From an uncultured Solirubrobacteraceae bacterium (GTDB lineage Bacteria > Actinomycetota > Thermoleophilia > Solirubrobacterales > Solirubrobacteraceae): DNA of 64,000 bases. The translations under genes and the position numbers were made by a program. The notes beneath the pieces were generated by a model. It searched no databases. It worked only from the letters and a program-made list of their open reading frames with translations, and had not been told where the DNA came from. The DNA lies in contig CAZPQW010000007.1 in the NCBI GenBank assembly GCA_964588985.1, positions 1-64,000 of the forward strand, given 5' to 3'. This document shows, piece by piece, positions 4,214 through 10,899 of the stretch; position 1 is the stretch's first letter; the number at the start of each line of letters is the position of its first letter.

Positions 4214-4627
4214 CTATTCGGGCAGATGGCAGACCTGCTGCGCGGCTTCCACCACGAACAGCTGCAGCTGATGGAGGACGCCTGGCTGGTGCGGTGAGTT
4301 GTCGCTGAAGCGGACCGTGCCGTCTTCGTCGCGTACGTTGTATTCGAACACCGAGCCGGGCGCCGATGGCAGGACGAGGTTGGAGGAGGCGGCTTCCTTG
4401 AGTTCTTCCTGCGTGGCCTTCGCGATCACGAGCTGATGGTCACTCAGTTTGAGCACCGGCCCGCCGTTGCACGTCACGTTGCCTTCTTCGTTGACGAGCA
4501 TCGTCAGGCGCGCGTGCGGAGTGGATCCGCTGCGTTTGACCAGGAACAGGTCGGCCGCCTTGACGCCGCCGCAGCCAGAGGCGAAGACCACGGCCAGCAT
4601 CACCCCGAGCATCGCAACGGGCTTCAC
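4214..4627 (-). CDS. Hypothetical lipoprotein
   Basis: GTG start overlaps the ggt stop (GTGA). Signal MKPVAMLGVMLAVVFASGC ends in a lipobox-like ASGC. Confidence 0.7.
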   Translation of the reverse strand: MKPVAMLGVMLAVVFASGCGGVKAADLFLVKRSGSTPHARLTMLVNEEGNVTCNGGPVLKLSDHQLVIAKATQEELKEAASSNLVLPSAPGSVFEYNVRDEDGTVRFSDNSPHQPGVLHQLQLFVVEAAQQVCHLPE

Positions 4628-6111
4628 GCGTTCACCGCCACACCGCCACGCCGTGGATCGCCCGCGCCGCTCAGGCGCTCGCCGCGACGCATGGCCGCCT
4701 GAACCCCGCCGAAGAACAGGTTGGGCGTGCCGAACCGCACGACGTTCGCATCGGCGTCCAGGCGACTGACGTCGATCCCCGGCTCGGCGAACACCACCCC
4801 GTTTTCCAGGTGCACGCGCGGAGCGTCGACCGCCTCTCGCACCTCCATCTCCCCGTCCACCACTCCGACGATCGTCTGCAGCAGCGCTGAGCGGATGCGG
4901 TTGGAGCCGGCGCTGCCGAGCACCAGCTCGACCTCGCCTTCGCGCATCACCACCGACGGGGCCATCATGCTCGGCATCCTGCGCCCAGCGAGGTGCTGAT
5001 GAAAGCCGAACGGGTTGAGGTCCTCCTCCCCCATCACGTTGTTCAGGTGCAGGCCCGTGCCCGGCACCACGACGCCCGAGCCCTCGCCGTTGGTGCACGT
5101 GACGCTGCACGCGCAGCCGTTGGTGTCGATCGCGGAGATGTGCGTGGTCGAGCCGAGGCGGGCGGCGAGGAAGTCGTCCAGGAAGCCCTCCCGGTCGAGA
5201 CCTTTGAGGAAGTCCGGCGTGCGCTCCGCCTGTGCGGCGCCCATCGCCGAGATCATGTCGCGCAGGCTCGGCGGCGCGGGCCCGCGGTCGAGCAGCGCGA
5301 GCGCGTAGGAGAGCAGCGTGCCGCCCGCGGACGGCGGCGGGTTGGTGAGGATCTCGCGGTCGCGGTAGGCGATCCTTGCGGGCTCGCGCTCGATCGCGCG
5401 GTAGTCGGCGAGGTTCTGTGCCGTGAGCGTGCTGCCGCGCGCGCCCAGCCACTCGCACACCGCGGCCGCGATGTCGCCGCGGTAGAACGGCTCGGCTCCC
5501 TCACTCGCAAGGCGCCGCAGCGCCTCGGCGAGCTCGGGGTTGCGCAGCGTGTCCCCCTCCTGGAGGATGCGCCCGTCGGGCGCCCAGAGGGCGGTGCACT
5601 CGGGCGTCGATTTGAGCAGGTCGGCGAGGATCTTCGCCACGTAGGCCTGCCCGTGGTTGATCTCGACCCCGTCATGCGCGAGCCGCGCGGCCGGCTCGAC
5701 GAGGTCCTCGAGCGACGCGGTGCCCCACCTGCGCATCGCCTCGCACACACCCGCGGGCACGCCGTAGACGCCGCAGGAGGCGGGGCCTATGTGGAACACC
5801 TGCACCGCGTCGCCGAAGGACACCTCCACGCCGTGCAGCTCCACGAGCGAGCCACCGCCGGCGAGGTGCGTCTCGCGGCCGGCGGGCGCCTCGACGAAGA
5901 AGTCGAGCAGCGTCGGCTCCACGCCGCCCCCGGCCACGAGCATGTATCCGCCCGCCCCCAGCCCGGTGAGCAGCGACTCGGCGACGAACGACGTGAGCAT
6001 CGCCGCGACGGCCGCGTCGACCGCGTTGCCGCCTTCGCGCAGCACCCTCGCACCCGCGTGCGCGCTCAGGGGATGCCCCGCCGCGACGACTCCCTTCTCA
6101 GCTGCGCTCAT
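4624..6111 (-). CDS. ggt: Gamma-glutamyltransferase
   Basis: GGNAVDAAVAA, TGLGAGGY, FYRGDIA, nucleophile STTHISAID, SMMAP, LGSAGSNRI, GAGDPRRGG. Confidence 0.92.
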   Translation of the reverse strand: MSAAEKGVVAAGHPLSAHAGARVLREGGNAVDAAVAAMLTSFVAESLLTGLGAGGYMLVAGGGVEPTLLDFFVEAPAGRETHLAGGGSLVELHGVEVSFGDAVQVFHIGPASCGVYGVPAGVCEAMRRWGTASLEDLVEPAARLAHDGVEINHGQAYVAKILADLLKSTPECTALWAPDGRILQEGDTLRNPELAEALRRLASEGAEPFYRGDIAAAVCEWLGARGSTLTAQNLADYRAIEREPARIAYRDREILTNPPPSAGGTLLSYALALLDRGPAPPSLRDMISAMGAAQAERTPDFLKGLDREGFLDDFLAARLGSTTHISAIDTNGCACSVTCTNGEGSGVVVPGTGLHLNNVMGEEDLNPFGFHQHLAGRRMPSMMAPSVVMREGEVELVLGSAGSNRIRSALLQTIVGVVDGEMEVREAVDAPRVHLENGVVFAEPGIDVSRLDADANVVRFGTPNLFFGGVQAAMRRGERLSGAGDPRRGGVAVNA

Positions 6112-6162: not shown

Positions 6163-7596
6163 CTAGAGGTTGGGGAGGAACTCTGGGATCTGCAGATCGT
6201 CCGTGAGGCTGCCGCGGCGCGATACCCGGACTGGCCCGGCGCGCTGCACCTTGACCTCGCCGACGGGCTCTTTGTAGCGGCTGACGCTCTTGCGCCGGCC
6301 CTCGTCGCCGTAGCCGGTGGCGACCACGGTGACCCACACCTGATCGTCGAGCTTTTCGTCGACCATCGCGCCGAAGATGATGTTGGCGTCCGGGTGCGCC
6401 GCCTCAGAGACCGACTTGGCGGCCTCGTTGACCTCCCACAGCGACAGGTTCGCCCCGCCGGTGATCGAAAGCAGGATCGAGCGGGCGCCTTCCATCGATG
6501 TTTCAAGCAGCGGCGATGAGACCGCCTGCTGCGCGGCCTCGACGGCGCGGTTCTCGCCCACGCCCATGCCGATCCCGAGCAGCGCGTTGCCAGCCTCGCT
6601 CATGATGGTGCGCACGTCCGCGAAGTCGAGGTTGATCAGCCCGGGGAGCGTGACCAGATCGGAGATCCCCTGCACTCCCTGGCGCAGCACGTCGTCGGCG
6701 ACACGGAAGGCCTCGACCATCGCGGTCTGCTTGTCGAGCACCGTCAGCAGGCGGTTGTTGGGCACCACGATCAGCGTGTCGACCTCTTCGGCGAGCGCCG
6801 CCACACCGCGCTCTGCCTGGTCGCGGCGGCGCGTGCCCTCGAACCCGAACGGCTTGGTCACGATCGCGACGGTAAGCGCGCCCACCTCGCGGGCGATCCG
6901 TGCAACGACGGGCGCGGCGCCGGTGCCGGTGCCGCCGCCTGCGCCCGCGGTGATGAACACCATGTCCGAGCCCTTGAGCAGAGCCTTCATGCGGTCGTAG
7001 TCCTCCATCGCCGCCTGACGGCCCACGTTTGCGTCCGAGCCTGAGCCGAGCCCGCGCGTGAGCTCCGCGCCGATGTGCAACGTGAGATCGGCGGTCGACT
7101 GCTGCAGCGACTGAACGTCGGTGTTGACGGCGAGGAACTCGATCCCCTCGACCTCAGCCTCGACCATGCGGTTGACTGCGTTGACGCCGCCTCCGCCCAC
7201 GCCGACGACGCGGATGATCGGCTGGCCGCTGCCGGCGCTCGACGGCGCGCGGTAGTCGCGCGGATAGTCGTCCATCGTCGGGCGGGGAGCGGGGCGCTCC
7301 ATCACGTTCTCGGGGATCTCGGAGGAGAACGCGTGGCGCAGCCGCTCCTGCGGGCTGGGGATGCGCACGTCCTCACGCGGCGCCTCGGGCGCGGCGCTCA
7401 GGGCGGGGTGCGGCAGGCCGCTCTCGCGCGGGTGAGCGGGCGCCGACGCCTGCTCGCTTTCCGCGGCGGGCGTGTCGCGTCGGATCTCGACCCGCGGCTC
7501 GCGCCCGTCGATCTCGCCGTCGATGTCTTCGGTCTTGCGGAACAGGGCGGCGAGAGGTCCTTCGCGCATGCTCGCGCGCTTGTTAGCGTTGGCCAT
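6163..7596 (-). CDS. ftsZ: Cell division protein FtsZ with ~125-aa N-terminal extension
   Basis: IRVVGVGGGGVNAVNRM, tubulin signature GGGTGTGAAP, T7 loop PGLINLDFADV, C-terminal peptide DDLQIPEFL. AGGAGG RBS upstream; start overlaps the parA stop. Confidence 0.97.
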   Translation of the reverse strand: MANANKRASMREGPLAALFRKTEDIDGEIDGREPRVEIRRDTPAAESEQASAPAHPRESGLPHPALSAAPEAPREDVRIPSPQERLRHAFSSEIPENVMERPAPRPTMDDYPRDYRAPSSAGSGQPIIRVVGVGGGGVNAVNRMVEAEVEGIEFLAVNTDVQSLQQSTADLTLHIGAELTRGLGSGSDANVGRQAAMEDYDRMKALLKGSDMVFITAGAGGGTGTGAAPVVARIAREVGALTVAIVTKPFGFEGTRRRDQAERGVAALAEEVDTLIVVPNNRLLTVLDKQTAMVEAFRVADDVLRQGVQGISDLVTLPGLINLDFADVRTIMSEAGNALLGIGMGVGENRAVEAAQQAVSSPLLETSMEGARSILLSITGGANLSLWEVNEAAKSVSEAAHPDANIIFGAMVDEKLDDQVWVTVVATGYGDEGRRKSVSRYKEPVGEVKVQRAGPVRVSRRGSLTDDLQIPEFLPNL

Positions 7597-8350
7597 TGGT
7601 GAGAACCTCCTGCGCGAGTTGTCGGTAGGACTGAGCCGCGACTCCGTCCGGCTCGTACTTGAGGACCGACATGCCCTTCACCGGAGCCTCTGCGAAGCGA
7701 ACGGTCTTGCGGATGCGCGACGCGAACACGCGGTCGCCGAAGTTTTCCTCGAGGATCTCGATCGCCTCCTTGGCGTGGATCGTGCGCGAGTCCACCAGCG
7801 TCGGCAGGATGCCCTCGATGTCGACGCCGGGGTTGAGGTTCTCGCGGATCATCGCTAGCGTGTTCTGCAGCTGGATCAACCCGCGCATCGACAGATACTC
7901 GCACTGCACCGGGACGATCACCTTGTCGGCGGCGGTGAGCGCGTTGATCGTCAGCAGGCCCAGGCTGGGCGGCGTGTCGATGCAGATGAAGTCGTAGTCG
8001 TCGAGGATCGGTTCGAAGGCCTTCTGCAGGGAGCGCTCGCGGCCGATCATCGTCGACATCGCGATCTCCGCTCCGGCGAGGTCGATCGATGCGCACGCGA
8101 CGTCGATCTCGCGCTTGCGGACCACCTCGCGGATCGAGACTTTGTGCACGAGCACGTCGTACATCGATTTGTCGAGCGTGTCGGGGTCGATCCCCTGGGA
8201 CATCGTCAGGTTGCCCTGCGGGTCCATGTCGACGCACAGCACGCGGTGGCCCTCCTCCGCGAACGCGGCGGCGAGGTTGAGCGTGGTCGTCGTCTTGGCC
8301 ACCCCGCCCTTCTGGTTGGCGAACGCGATGACCTTGGCCTTGCCTTGCAC
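7583..8350 (-). CDS. parA: ParA/Soj family ATPase
   Basis: Deviant Walker A NQKGGVAKTTT, VDMDPQGNLT, IDTPPSLG, PVQCEYLS, IRKTVRFAEAP. GTG 8350 preceded by GGAG. Confidence 0.95.
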   Translation of the reverse strand: MQGKAKVIAFANQKGGVAKTTTTLNLAAAFAEEGHRVLCVDMDPQGNLTMSQGIDPDTLDKSMYDVLVHKVSIREVVRKREIDVACASIDLAGAEIAMSTMIGRERSLQKAFEPILDDYDFICIDTPPSLGLLTINALTAADKVIVPVQCEYLSMRGLIQLQNTLAMIRENLNPGVDIEGILPTLVDSRTIHAKEAIEILEENFGDRVFASRIRKTVRFAEAPVKGMSVLKYEPDGVAAQSYRQLAQEVLTNGQR

Positions 8351-8439: not shown

Positions 8440-9573
8440 ATGACCAGGACCAAGCGCCCGCCCGCAACGGGGGATCTGTGGGCGCGTTTGGGCGCCAAGC
8501 GCGTGGTGGTGTGCGTGGGTGCGGGGGGCGTTGGCAAGACGACCACCTCCGCCGCGCTCGCGCTGGGACTCGCGGCACGCGGGCGCAAGGTGGCGGTGGT
8601 GACGATCGATCCGGCCAAGCGTCTGGCCTCGGCGCTGGGCCTGGAGGAGCTCGCGAGCGAGCCGGTGCGGATCGAGGCGCAGACGCTCTCGCGAGGGGGC
8701 CTCGAGGTGAAGGGCGAGCTGTGGGCGATGATGCTCGACGCGAAGCGCACGTTCGACGAGATCATCGCGCGCCTCGCGCCCGACGAGCACGCTCGCGAGG
8801 AGATCCTCGCCAATCCCGTCTACCGCGAGCTCTCGACCGCCGTCGCCGGATCGCACGAGCTGAGCGCGATCGCGAAGCTCTACGAGCTGTACGAGGAGCA
8901 CGACTTCGACACGATCGTGCTCGACACGCCGCCGTCGCGCAACGCGCTGGACTTCCTCAACGCGCCGAACCGCCTGCTGGGCTTCCTGGAAGGCCGAGCG
9001 CTGCAGGTGTTCCTCGCGCCCGGAGGGCTGACCGCGCGCCTGTTCGGACGCGGCACGGCATTGGTGTTCGCGATCTTCGCGCGCGTCACCGGCGTGGACA
9101 TGCTCGGCGAGCTGTCGCGGTTCTTTCGCTCGCTCAGCGGCGTCATCGACGGCTTCGGCGAGCAGACGCGAGGTGTGGCCGCGCTGCTGCGCGACGAGCA
9201 CACCACTTTCGCGATCGTCACCTCGCCCGAGGTGGAGCCGGCGCGCGAGGCGCGCTTCATGGCGGAGCAGCTGGCGGCGAACGGAATGGAGGTCGGCGAG
9301 CTGATCGTCAACCGCGTGCACGAGCACGGCCTCGACGGTCACTCGGCGGAGGACGTGGCGAGCCTGCTGGCGCCGAAGCTGGGCGAGGGATTGGCGGGGC
9401 GTGCGGCGAGCAACCTCGCGGACTACGACGTGCTCGTGCGGGGCGACGCCGAGACGATCGAGCGCCTGTCCGGCATGCTGGCGGGCCGCGCGCCGATCCT
9501 GGTCCCCCAGCTAGATGAAGATGTCCAGGATCTCCTCGTTCTGGACAAGATCGCCGAACACCTCTTCGCCTGA
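8440..9573 (+). CDS. ArsA/GET3-family ATPase (Rv3680-like)
   Basis: GAGGVGKTT, TIDPAKRLASALG, MMLDAKRTFD, VLDTPPSRNALDFLNAP. Confidence 0.9.
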   Translation: MTRTKRPPATGDLWARLGAKRVVVCVGAGGVGKTTTSAALALGLAARGRKVAVVTIDPAKRLASALGLEELASEPVRIEAQTLSRGGLEVKGELWAMMLDAKRTFDEIIARLAPDEHAREEILANPVYRELSTAVAGSHELSAIAKLYELYEEHDFDTIVLDTPPSRNALDFLNAPNRLLGFLEGRALQVFLAPGGLTARLFGRGTALVFAIFARVTGVDMLGELSRFFRSLSGVIDGFGEQTRGVAALLRDEHTTFAIVTSPEVEPAREARFMAEQLAANGMEVGELIVNRVHEHGLDGHSAEDVASLLAPKLGEGLAGRAASNLADYDVLVRGDAETIERLSGMLAGRAPILVPQLDEDVQDLLVLDKIAEHLFA

Positions 9574-10899
9574 GGCGGCCGCGACGGGCATCGCCCGTAC
9601 GGTGAGCTCCTCGGGCTGAGGCTCGGGCTCGCGCTCGGGCCCGGATTCGAGCAGGATGCGGTCGGCGAGCGCGACAAGATCGGCTGTGAGGTGCCCGCAG
9701 ATCACGTCGCGCAGCAGGGCGCGCAGATGGTCGGCGATCTCCTTTGCGAGGATCTCTCCGCCGGCGTGCTCGACGACGCTGCCGTCCACCACGGCGCGCT
9801 CGAGCGCGATCGCCTGGAAGGTCCGCTCGGCCAGGTGCGGACGCTCCTCGGCGGTGGCGCACAGCGCCGCGAGGCGCGTGGCGAGCAGTGCGCTGCCGGA
9901 TCCTTCCGGCTCGACCTCGTGTGGTCGTGTGAGCAGCGCTCGCAGGGCAAGCAGGTGGTCGGTGAGGGCTTCGTAGGGGCTCGGCCGCTCGCAGCCGAGC
10001 TCGAAGCGCTGAAGCGCCCACGCGAGCTCGTTGCCGTGCGGCGCGCGCCGTGAGACGAGGTTGCAGAAGCCGCGCAGCTCGTCCTCCTGCTCGACGCCCA
10101 CCACGAGCAGGCCGCGGGGTCGCCCCCCGGCTCCGAGCGCGGTCGCGTTCCACGAGCCGGCGCCCACGCGCACCCAAGCGAGCGCGCCGAGCGTGACGCG
10201 TCCGTCGCCGAACAGGCGCAGCGCGCGCAGCAGATCCTTCAACACCTCGCGTCCGCGCGCGATCGCCTCGCGCGCGTCGTCCTCGTCGAGGGCGAGCACC
10301 ACGACCAGGTGACCGCTGCCGTCCTCTTCGCTCGTCGCGAGCGCGCCCGGGGGCAGCCCCTCGAGCGCGGTCGGCTGGGCGATCGTGAGGCCCTTCGTCA
10401 GAGGGATCTCCGCCGAGCTGACGATCAGTCCGTGCAGGGTCGCCACGAGCGTCACCTCGCTGGAGCTCCCGAGCGTCGACTGCTCGAGTCGATCGAGCGC
10501 CGCCTGCAGGCGCTCGGGGCGCAGCTCGAAGTCGGTCTGCTCGGCGAACACCTCGCGCAGCATCGAGCCGATCGCGGCGCGCACGCCCGCGCTCCCGGAC
10601 GTGCGTCCGATGTCCACGCCGATGCTCGTCAGGTAGCGGTCGAGCCCGTCGAAGCCCGCGAGCAGCGTGGCCGCCTCGGTGTAGCTCGGCAGACGCTCGA
10701 GCGCGATCGCGCGCTCGGCGATGAACTCGCCGGTGAGTGGCTGGTAGCAGTACAGCGCCGGAGTACCGGAGCGCCTGCGCCCGCTCTGCTGGGCGAGTTC
10801 GAATCCGACCTCCGCACCGGCGGCGATCTCGGCGTGGAGGAGCGCGGCCGCGTCCTCCACGAACTGACTCAGGGCTGCTTGAAGCTGGAGTGAACGCAT
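9511..10899 (-). CDS. Hypothetical protein with a possible degenerate Apea-like HEPN C-terminal domain
   Basis: Long ORF with host-like codon bias. C-terminus WALQRFE...ALTDHLLALRALL...LATRLAAL...ERAVVDG resembles the HEPN helical pattern. Confidence 0.65.
   Translation of the reverse strand: MRSLQLQAALSQFVEDAAALLHAEIAAGAEVGFELAQQSGRRRSGTPALYCYQPLTGEFIAERAIALERLPSYTEAATLLAGFDGLDRYLTSIGVDIGRTSGSAGVRAAIGSMLREVFAEQTDFELRPERLQAALDRLEQSTLGSSSEVTLVATLHGLIVSSAEIPLTKGLTIAQPTALEGLPPGALATSEEDGSGHLVVVLALDEDDAREAIARGREVLKDLLRALRLFGDGRVTLGALAWVRVGAGSWNATALGAGGRPRGLLVVGVEQEDELRGFCNLVSRRAPHGNELAWALQRFELGCERPSPYEALTDHLLALRALLTRPHEVEPEGSGSALLATRLAALCATAEERPHLAERTFQAIALERAVVDGSVVEHAGGEILAKEIADHLRALLRDVICGHLTADLVALADRILLESGPEREPEPQPEELTVRAMPVAAASGEEVFGDLVQNEEILDIFI

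Follow-up and report, generated by a model that had tools for sequence, protein, structure and literature searches.

A conserved parA-ftsZ2 module of Thermoleophilia with a candidate ParA-partner peptide on a second FtsZ

Introduction

How Actinomycetota choose the site at which they divide is an old open question. To our knowledge, these bacteria are without Min and Noc, and their second ParA (PldP, ParA2 or Rv1708) is without an accepted partner. The question takes a particular form at a pair of overlapping genes, parA and ftsZ2, in the first 64,000 nucleotides of contig CAZPQW010000007.1 (assembly GCA_964588985.1) from an uncultured Solirubrobacteraceae bacterium of soil; this whole stretch is referred to here as the window. 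The product of ftsZ2 is an FtsZ with a long N-terminal extension that opens with a short peptide, the head, which a preliminary description of this DNA had read as a ParA activator fused to FtsZ itself. What is the head for, and is the neighbouring ATPase its partner? With a rough probability of 60%, the head is a ParA-partner peptide that is now carried by an FtsZ paralogue and serves as a handle for the neighbouring ATPase. A likely partner peptide would, in effect, be written onto FtsZ itself.

In the accessible parts of two papers (PMC4255298, PMC10482377), the lineage of ParA2, PldP and Rv1708 is tied to septum placement, and Rv1708 is reported in the second of them to affect septation. 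According to the available portion of a preprint (bioRxiv 10.1101/2025.07.02.662783), the partner of PldP "has yet to be identified", and ParB does not stimulate PldP. None of the papers searched, with supplementary gene lists outside the scope of the search, describes an FtsZ paralogue linked to ParA or the ParA-linked small protein that is discussed below.

The parA-ftsZ2 pair

The operon layout, the ribosome-binding site and the overlap of the two genes were re-read from the sequence, and the coordinates and features of the preliminary description were borne out. The parts of the pair that carry the argument are the following.

7583..8350, minus strand: parA-like ATPase gene with a GTG start, 255 amino acids, stop codon included (PF13614, E 5e-61)
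6163..7596, minus strand: ftsZ2, the gene of a second FtsZ paralogue of 477 amino acids, stop codon included (TIGR00065, Pfam)
7583..7596, minus strand: 14-nucleotide overlap of the parA stop and the ftsZ2 start (read from sequence)
7606..7611, minus strand: AGGAGG ribosome-binding site, 9 nucleotides before the ftsZ2 ATG at 7596 (read from sequence)
7531..7581, minus strand: head peptide K6-T22, KRASMREGPLAALFRKT, candidate ParA-partner motif (conservation, codon analysis)
7222..7530, minus strand: variable linker rich in Pro, Glu, Arg and Ala, residues 23-125, predicted disordered (AlphaFold2, composition)
7291..7359, minus strand: order-specific linker motif PSPQERLRHAFSSEIPENVMERP, residues 80-102 (conserved in families f1-f6)

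The GTG start of parA was picked by agreement with 25 orthologues. Judged from its arrangement, the 14-nucleotide overlap is one of translational coupling. The pairing recurs throughout the class, by which Thermoleophilia is meant here, an assignment made from NCBI names on close protein matches (Solirubrobacteraceae). Of 30 genus and order loci, 27 have a ParA-like open reading frame (ORF) immediately upstream on the strand of ftsZ2, and the remaining three are truncated by contig ends; the same arrangement is seen in 20 of 20 order loci. Wherever the starts could be placed, the parA stop overlaps the ftsZ2 start (26 of 26 loci; 4-71 nucleotides, typically 14), a count that leaves out L047 and L086, in which the start rule was not met. 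The co-occurrence of the extension with an upstream parA, proposed earlier as a check, is consequently seen in all 26 of these class-wide loci. On this gene order, parA-ftsZ2 is a two-gene module conserved across Thermoleophilia.

Contigs in soil RNA libraries, from relatives that are 90-95% alike, span the parA/ftsZ2 junction in two studies (7559-7676 and 7564-7715). These are not counted as expression because DNA carry-over is possible and contigs cannot show a transcript.

Conservation of the head and variation of the linker

The long form of FtsZ was found throughout 61 relatives from one order and six families in a protein search, and alignments to these relatives often start at residue 1-5 of FtsZ2 even when the linker is left unaligned. 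At the level of DNA, the head is present in 48 of 50 order loci (L008-L057), while L030 and L037 are truncated by contig ends. The 48 head-coding stretches all differ from one another as DNA, and the peptides that they encode number only 18. At ten of the 17 head codons, the residue is constant despite the use of two to five synonymous codons, and Ser9 is encoded by both serine codon families. Pairwise codon differences amount to 8212 synonymous versus 1765 non-synonymous. Judging by these codons, the head (K6-T22) is under strong purifying selection. This selection excludes a start of ftsZ2 at Met99 or Met108, and it also rules out a true start near residue 110-125, with which the idea of a functional head would have fallen.

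Conservation extends beyond the order. R7, S9, M10, L15, L18, F19 and T22 are invariant among 26 class-wide sequences, and of 151 class genomes, 127 are matched by a profile of the head. Of 20 order loci, all have the head on FtsZ; in seven further families, it sits on an FtsZ directly behind ParA in 19 of 20. All five f10 genomes that the profile missed have a diverged head, KRSS[MIL]K[DNS]SGLxxLF, on an FtsZ2 behind ParA. Outside the class, the profile gave five weak partial matches among 279 genomes, a figure that underestimates distant relatives, since the same search missed the RRASLPGA peptides described below because of their different spacing.

The exception among the 20 loci of further families is L084 (3115-4491, minus strand), in the family f10 genome G098. 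Here, a weak head-like match, GRASMSEGLAALFRPTE (E 2.3e-4 per genome), lies in or near the start of a 458-residue ORF that is not an FtsZ and has no Pfam match. The motif may have another carrier here, or the match may be due to chance.

The linker varies in sequence between loci and ranges in length from about 35 to more than 200 residues, so that the expectation of a conserved head followed by a variable linker was seen both across the order and in the further families. The motif at residues 80-102 is kept in f1-f6 and is absent from f7, f8 and f11, in which the linker is short. Two further linker motifs, LPHPAL (7399-7416, minus strand) and TMDDYxRDY (7252-7278, minus strand), are found in families f1-f6 only.

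Stand-alone small proteins consisting of the head were considered and rejected. There were 813 short matches, and all 35 that were inspected have the head followed by an out-of-frame sequence rich in Arg and Pro; the inspected matches are thus frameshifted or truncated ftsZ2 calls. Public ftsZ2 gene calls are in fact often broken in the GC-rich linker (P0085 and the short matches P0121-P0233). P0085 is a ParA that reads through into the head, probably by an assembly indel. Such broken calls are probably assembly indels in general, and an automatic annotation of the extension would be led astray by them.

FtsZ2 as a second FtsZ paralogue

The remainder of the protein is an FtsZ of the usual kind, with the following parts.

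6313..7215, minus strand: FtsZ GTPase core and C-terminal domain, residues 128-428 (Pfam, AlphaFold2)
6919..6939, minus strand: G-box GGGTGTG, residues 220-226 (read from sequence)
6613..6633, minus strand: T7 loop NLDFADV, residues 322-328 (read from sequence)
6166..6201, minus strand: C-terminal conserved peptide DDLQIPEFLPNL of FtsZ2 (read from sequence)

FtsZ2 scores 415.7 bits on the TIGR00065 equivalog (cut-off 295.2), with the Tubulin domain PF00091 at residues 128-287 (E 1e-44) and FtsZ_C PF12327 at residues 336-428 (E 1.8e-32). The core begins at about residue 127, the G-box and T7 loop are invariant across 26 orthologues, and the C-terminal pattern D-x-[DE]-[VI]-P-E-F is kept within the order, the window copy reading D-x-x-I-P-E-F-L. 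SepF is encoded in the same genome. The portrayal of this protein as an intact FtsZ, with its G-box, T7 loop and C-terminal peptide, preceded by about 125 extra residues (1-125) therefore holds. In an AlphaFold2 model built on a 26-sequence alignment, residues 128-430 form a confident FtsZ fold with the expected order of strands and helices (block-mean predicted local distance difference test, pLDDT, of 78-97). Residues 1-125 are mostly below a pLDDT of 50, have short helices at 16-20 and 82-91 only, and are not docked on the core; the second helix falls in the linker motif, with a pLDDT of 52-66. The extension is predicted from this model to be a disordered tether.

The preliminary description had noted that this ftsZ is without neighbours from the division and cell wall (dcw) cluster and had called for a check whether it was the only ftsZ of the genome. 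The first point is correct for the window gene and does not hold for the genome, and the check turned up a further copy. In the 3.41-Mb assembly, the ftsZ model matches at two places, and the second gene encodes a protein of 369 residues without an extension (FtsZ1), on contig C6 at the end of a murE-murF-mraY-ftsW-murG-murC-murB-ftsQ cluster. The window copy is the class-wide second paralogue. Since it is not the sole copy, any reading in terms of positioning the division site through the Z-ring must pass through FtsZ2.

Two copies are the rule in the class: 18 of 19 genomes have exactly two ftsZ matches over the TIGR00065 cut-off, and the nineteenth (G087) has one whole ftsZ and two fragments at contig ends. 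With the same model, 54 of 56 non-class Actinomycetota genomes have a single ftsZ. The remaining two are G238, in which ftsZ is split at contig ends, and G245 (family f40), in which a tandem ftsZ pair at G245:C63:10965-13453 makes it the only other double-ftsZ genome among the 56. A quick, unrooted maximum-likelihood tree was built of 57 FtsZ cores, of which 25 are headed, 9 are headless copies of the class and 23 are non-class; the cores are a chosen subset of loci from which L070 was left out by a pattern filter. In this tree, the headed proteins form one side of a branch with a support of 98 in the Shimodaira-Hasegawa-like approximate likelihood ratio test (SH-aLRT), and the headless class copies group with other actinobacterial FtsZ (98). 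A canonical dcw FtsZ is encoded after ftsQ and is orthologous to actinobacterial FtsZ, and window FtsZ2 is neither. FtsZ2 is a paralogue of the canonical dcw FtsZ.

The same peptide on small proteins behind ParA2

Around the best non-class matches to the window ParA, the gene of a 114-192-residue protein overlaps the parA stop in 19 of 24 loci. In all 19, this small protein starts with (M/V)xRRASLPGA[DE]ELFRxT, after which come a linker that varies and a C-terminal domain that is conserved; three of the 19 come from unpublished genomes, on which the result does not depend. An RRxSLPGAxELFRxT start behind actinobacterial parA genes of the ParA2/Rv1708 type, which the preliminary description had mentioned, is thus real, while for the name "ParH" that it gave to the Rv1708-type parA the literature search returned nothing. 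The small-protein N-terminus aligns with the FtsZ2 head, profile to profile, with an hhalign E-value of 2.2e-4, and FtsZ2 itself has the motif R-[RK]-A-S-[LM]...L-F-R-x-T at the start of a gene that overlaps a non-Soj actinobacterial parA. On this alignment, the head is homologous to the N-terminal peptide of the small ParA2-linked proteins, and it occupies the same partner position behind parA.

The small-protein family is large. At least 590 of its genes were found in a scan of named genomes (including loci L125-L146 and L149-L228), and the best 80 matches are all from Streptomyces because the first row of the query was of the Streptomyces type. On one complete Streptomyces chromosome, the order is alanine dehydrogenase, the parA-like gene, the small protein, scpA and scpB; this is, as far as the accessible text of a review allows the comparison, the ParA2/SCO1772 locus (PMC4255298). 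The same text states that all actinobacteria have this locus and equates ParA2 with PldP. At the window module, scpA is not adjacent and is located elsewhere in the genome.

Five of the small proteins were queried against Pfam and NCBIfam and matched no model, and the family profile matched none of the PDB sequences. The C-terminal 60 residues are predicted to adopt a confident helical fold. A Foldseek search with this domain gave nothing at E ≤0.001; its top row was the ribbon-helix-helix centromere-binding protein of pCXC100 (E 0.69), so that a ribbon-helix-helix fold is only a suggestion from the model. The family profile gave no match at E ≤1 in the genome of the window, an empty result that shows little. 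The small proteins are candidates for the partner that PldP/ParA2 still lacks.

The ParA ATPase and its pocket

If the head is a partner peptide, the ATPase beside it should be able to receive one. Four elements were located in the window ParA.

8291..8311, minus strand: ParA deviant Walker A motif KGGVAKT (read from sequence)
8210..8230, minus strand: ParA motif 2, DMDPQGN (read from sequence)
7781..7792, minus strand: Soj-like DSRT element of ParA (read from sequence)
7694..7708, minus strand: Soj-like KTVRF element of ParA (read from sequence)

The last two are those to which the preliminary description had drawn attention. K14, K19, D41, D43 and N47, which mark the ParA/Soj-type deviant Walker A ATPases, are all present, and N47 is kept in 25 of 25 FtsZ2-linked ParAs and lost in the ParA2 clade. 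The nearest solved structures are the mycobacterial orphan ParA (4PFS/5IHP/5IF9, E 7e-59) and Myxococcus xanthus ParA (8RAY, E 4e-57). The 8RAY alignment, together with the residues that the available part of PMC12462528 names, was used to map the window protein to M. xanthus ParA. R218 aligns with the DNA-binding R238 of M. xanthus, a position at which 16 of 25 orthologues have Arg and 9 have Lys; DNA binding is thus predicted. The hydrophobic pocket for ParB is kept (I96, L130, L132, I135, M167 and L172), and so are Y64, D65 and D90, three of the four residues that surround the arginine of ParB. By these residues, the window ParA looks able to bind a ParB-like peptide. Position 97, in the same pocket, is Ala in 25 of 25 FtsZ2-linked ParAs, Glu in 11 of 12 Soj proteins and other residues in other clades, and such a clade-specific residue fits a dedicated partner.

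Two further approaches to the contact were taken. Covariation between head variants and the ParA pocket was rejected as a line of evidence, as the changes track lineages (for example, L167 in f10 and Q167 in f7) and are inseparable from relatedness. A ParA dimer was also modelled together with FtsZ2(1-40) and two ATP; this prediction, run without controls, gave interaction scores (ipSAE) of 0.00 and 0.01, which count neither towards binding nor against it.

The window ParA is 45-52% identical to other Actinomycetota ParAs versus 42% to the Soj of its own genome. In a tree of 68 ParA rows, from which L133, L266 and L274 were left out as no ParA came through the filter, ParAs partnered by ParB (96), by the small protein (99) and by FtsZ2 (99) form separate clades. 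Accordingly placed, the window ParA is, in this tree, a relative of ParA2 outside its clade.

Three other identities were weighed for the window ParA. It was rejected as the chromosomal Soj of a Soj-ParB pair, as its downstream gene is ftsZ2 and the ParB-partnered ParAs are a separate clade. The classical soj-parB pair is on C13, beside rsmG/jag/yidC and separate from the module, and the ParB encoded there has the usual N-terminal G-x-G-R-G-L-S-A-I-L motif. The earlier remark that no parB lies nearby is borne out: the contig is without a ParB_N match, and the two matches of the genome are on C13 and C3. It was also rejected as MinD, with 55 bits on minD_bact against a cut-off of 212.9 and a C-terminus (...QEVLTNGQR) without an amphipathic tail. 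As to MipZ, the match to profile PF09140 is weak, at 50.5 bits versus 206 bits for AAA_31.

Two other groups of ParA-like ATPases came to light in the tree. A fourth actinobacterial clade, sister to the FtsZ2-linked ParAs (L265, L267, L271, L147, L269, L279, L275 and L277; families f14, f20 and f23), has small downstream ORFs of its own, some with G-K-x-A-L-F-S-like peptides. A third, very divergent ParA-like ATPase of the genome to which the window belongs (KGGTGKT), on a long branch, is at G000:C12:88373-89086 (L108), with another at G065:C4 (L264); no recognisable partner gene was found downstream of it at either locus.

What the head may bind

The reading of the head as a handle for ParA follows from three things taken together: the peptide is common to two unrelated proteins, both of these occupy the partner slot of related ParAs, and the peptide resembles the ParB motif. 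In the accessible part of PMC12462528, that motif is described as N-terminal and unstructured, with hydrophobic residues at i, i+4, i+7 and i+8 and a central Arg or Lys; L15, L18 and F19 of the head fit i+4, i+7 and i+8. Of the activator-on-FtsZ idea with which the analysis began, the conserved head, the co-occurrence with parA and the RRxSLPGAxELFRxT motif stand, whereas this ftsZ is not the only one of its genome; binding of the head to ParA and stimulation of its ATPase are what we infer from these.

Several observations weigh against this reading. M10 lies one residue too far upstream of L-x-x-L-F relative to the ParB motif (except in f8, which is without the Pro), and the Arg of the head is shifted, since R11 adjoins M10 rather than following two residues after it. 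The head was modelled by AlphaFold2 at low confidence, and the hhalign probability of its match to the small proteins is only 45% over 25 columns. On the side of the ATPase, the fourth residue around the ParB arginine, E117 of M. xanthus, which contacts it, is Ala97 in the window ParA. In addition, the FtsZ2-linked ParA clade is not nested within the clade with small RRASLPGA partners and groups instead, at 91 (unstarred), with the fourth clade, which has other small partners; given this topology, the peptide and the ATPase may not be inherited as one simple orthologous pair. Finally, the partners reported for Rv1708 in the available part of PMC10482377 are ParB and ScpA, with no small downstream protein.

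Some of these points would be better accommodated if the operon link were real and the head bound something other than ParA, such as FtsZ1, SepF, a kinase or FHA partner at the invariant Ser or Thr, or a protease adaptor. In that case, the action of ParA on FtsZ2 would be indirect, or shared with ParB and ScpA in the manner reported for Rv1708. The loss of the E117 equivalent and the partners reported in PMC10482377 speak for this alternative, as do the invariant S9 and T22, which a purely hydrophobic, ParB-like contact leaves unexplained. Nevertheless, it is unlikely: the same peptide opens the gene in the partner position behind the closest non-class ParAs, and its sharing by an FtsZ and a small helical protein is hard to explain unless the neighbouring ATPase is the common partner.

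Head and tether might also act in cis or between FtsZ subunits, by auto-inhibition, bundling or co-assembly with FtsZ1, with the parA linkage a matter of co-regulation. There is precedent in heterocyst-forming cyanobacteria, in which, according to the accessible part of PMC6175996, FtsZ needs a conserved N-terminal peptide for normal polymerisation, and the second conserved motif in the linker of the order would be in keeping with it. The undocked extension in the AlphaFold2 model is weak evidence to the contrary, and a cis role leaves the shared peptide on small ParA2-linked proteins, which have no FtsZ domain, unexplained; this explanation is accordingly rated as highly improbable. That the head is a membrane-targeting amphipathic helix, giving FtsZ2 its own anchor, is hardly tenable: the peptide combines Leu and Phe with basic residues, and residues 16-20 are predicted to form a short helix, but membrane-targeting helices usually keep their amphipathic character rather than their exact sequence, whereas here seven positions, Ser, Thr and Arg among them, are identical class-wide, the hydrophobic run is only about five residues long, the usual C-terminal peptide is still there in FtsZ2, and SepF is encoded in the genome.

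A possible mechanism

With the head read as a ParA-partner peptide, a sequence of events can be proposed. FtsZ2 would be a polymerisation-competent paralogue of the dcw FtsZ that acquired a peptide at the tip of a disordered tether, the acquired peptide being the one that starts the small protein behind the ParA2/PldP-type ATPase in other Actinomycetota. ParA would sit on the nucleoid as an ATP-bound dimer and would bind the FtsZ2 head in the hydrophobic pocket of its dimer interface, as it does ParB peptides in ParABS. Filaments of FtsZ2, alone or mixed with FtsZ1, would display many heads, and the turnover of ATP by ParA would place these filaments relative to the nucleoid, or keep them away from it, without a separate adaptor. 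The effect might be the placing of FtsZ2 (and of FtsZ1 through co-assembly), nucleoid exclusion, or the bringing of ParA to the septum.

The module suggests, from its gene and protein sequences, a direct link between a ParA ATPase and FtsZ filaments that has been undescribed so far. Its fullest form, an adaptor-free system of two proteins in which FtsZ2 filaments are the direct, multivalent partner of ParA, and which arose when the small-partner peptide of ParA2/PldP moved onto a duplicated FtsZ, is put forward tentatively, at slightly under even odds. If it is true, the partner that PldP/ParA2 lacks in Streptomyces and related bacteria would be identified by the same peptide as well. The module makes the question of the ParA partner approachable by simple assays, draws attention to an unannotated small-protein family whose members may partner ParA2 in Streptomyces and in many genera besides, and would be a bacterial case of two FtsZ paralogues that divide the work between them.

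Comparison with known systems

The parA-ftsZ2 module is a variant of the ParA/MinD positioning theme and not a new kind of system. It is like ParABS in several respects. As in ParB, a disordered region begins, at its extreme N-terminus, with a short peptide in which a basic residue precedes G-x-L-x-x-L-[FI]; the gene of FtsZ2 lies directly behind parA and overlaps it; and the ATPase keeps the dimer interface's hydrophobic pocket, the catalytic residues and the DNA-binding Arg. The carrier, by contrast, is an FtsZ and not a CTPase clamp bound to parS, and there is neither ParB nor parS in the module. The closest non-class ParAs are ParA2/SCO1772, Corynebacterium glutamicum PldP and Rv1708/MSMEG_3743, which share with the module a homologous peptide on an overlapping downstream gene. 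In those systems, however, the peptide is on the small protein of 114-192 residues, followed by scpA-scpB, rather than on FtsZ2, and the FtsZ2-linked ParAs are a clade of their own.

Other relatives are found among systems that act on FtsZ. In PomX, the activator is an N-terminal peptide, while MipZ is ParB-dependent and inhibits FtsZ directly. The PomXYZ system of M. xanthus resembles the module in that, according to the accessible text of PMC7993993, a nucleoid-associated ParA/MinD ATPase that is stimulated by a partner protein positions FtsZ. Unlike in the module, PomZ works via the separate proteins PomX and PomY, and M. xanthus FtsZ is without an activator peptide. MipZ of Caulobacter (PMC7229837, available part) and MinCDE likewise have P-loop ParA/MinD ATPases that control the site of FtsZ assembly; a difference is that MinD attaches to the membrane and acts by way of MinC and MinE. 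In Haloferax, a single cell has two FtsZ proteins (FtsZ1 and FtsZ2) that divide the roles between them, and cyanobacterial FtsZ has a conserved N-terminal peptide (PMC6175996). As far as their abstracts go, both differ from the module in having no overlapping ParA gene and no motif like that of a ParA partner.

Neighbouring genes

Divergent from parA, at 8440-9573 (plus strand), is the gene of an ArsA/Get3-type ATPase that is nearest to the mycobacterial BagB model, on which it scores 298 bits, under the cut-off of 521. Of 20 order-level loci, 18 have a P-loop ORF at the BagB-like position; such an ORF is also present in family f13, and not in f7-f12. The end of the BagB-like gene is overlapped by about 60 nucleotides by the 3′ end of a 462-residue ORF at 9511-10899 (minus strand), which has no Pfam match. 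Downstream of ftsZ2, at 4624-6111 (minus strand), is a gamma-glutamyltranspeptidase gene. The same neighbour stands behind ftsZ2 in a genome of family f7 (L070), and synteny thus extends past the order.

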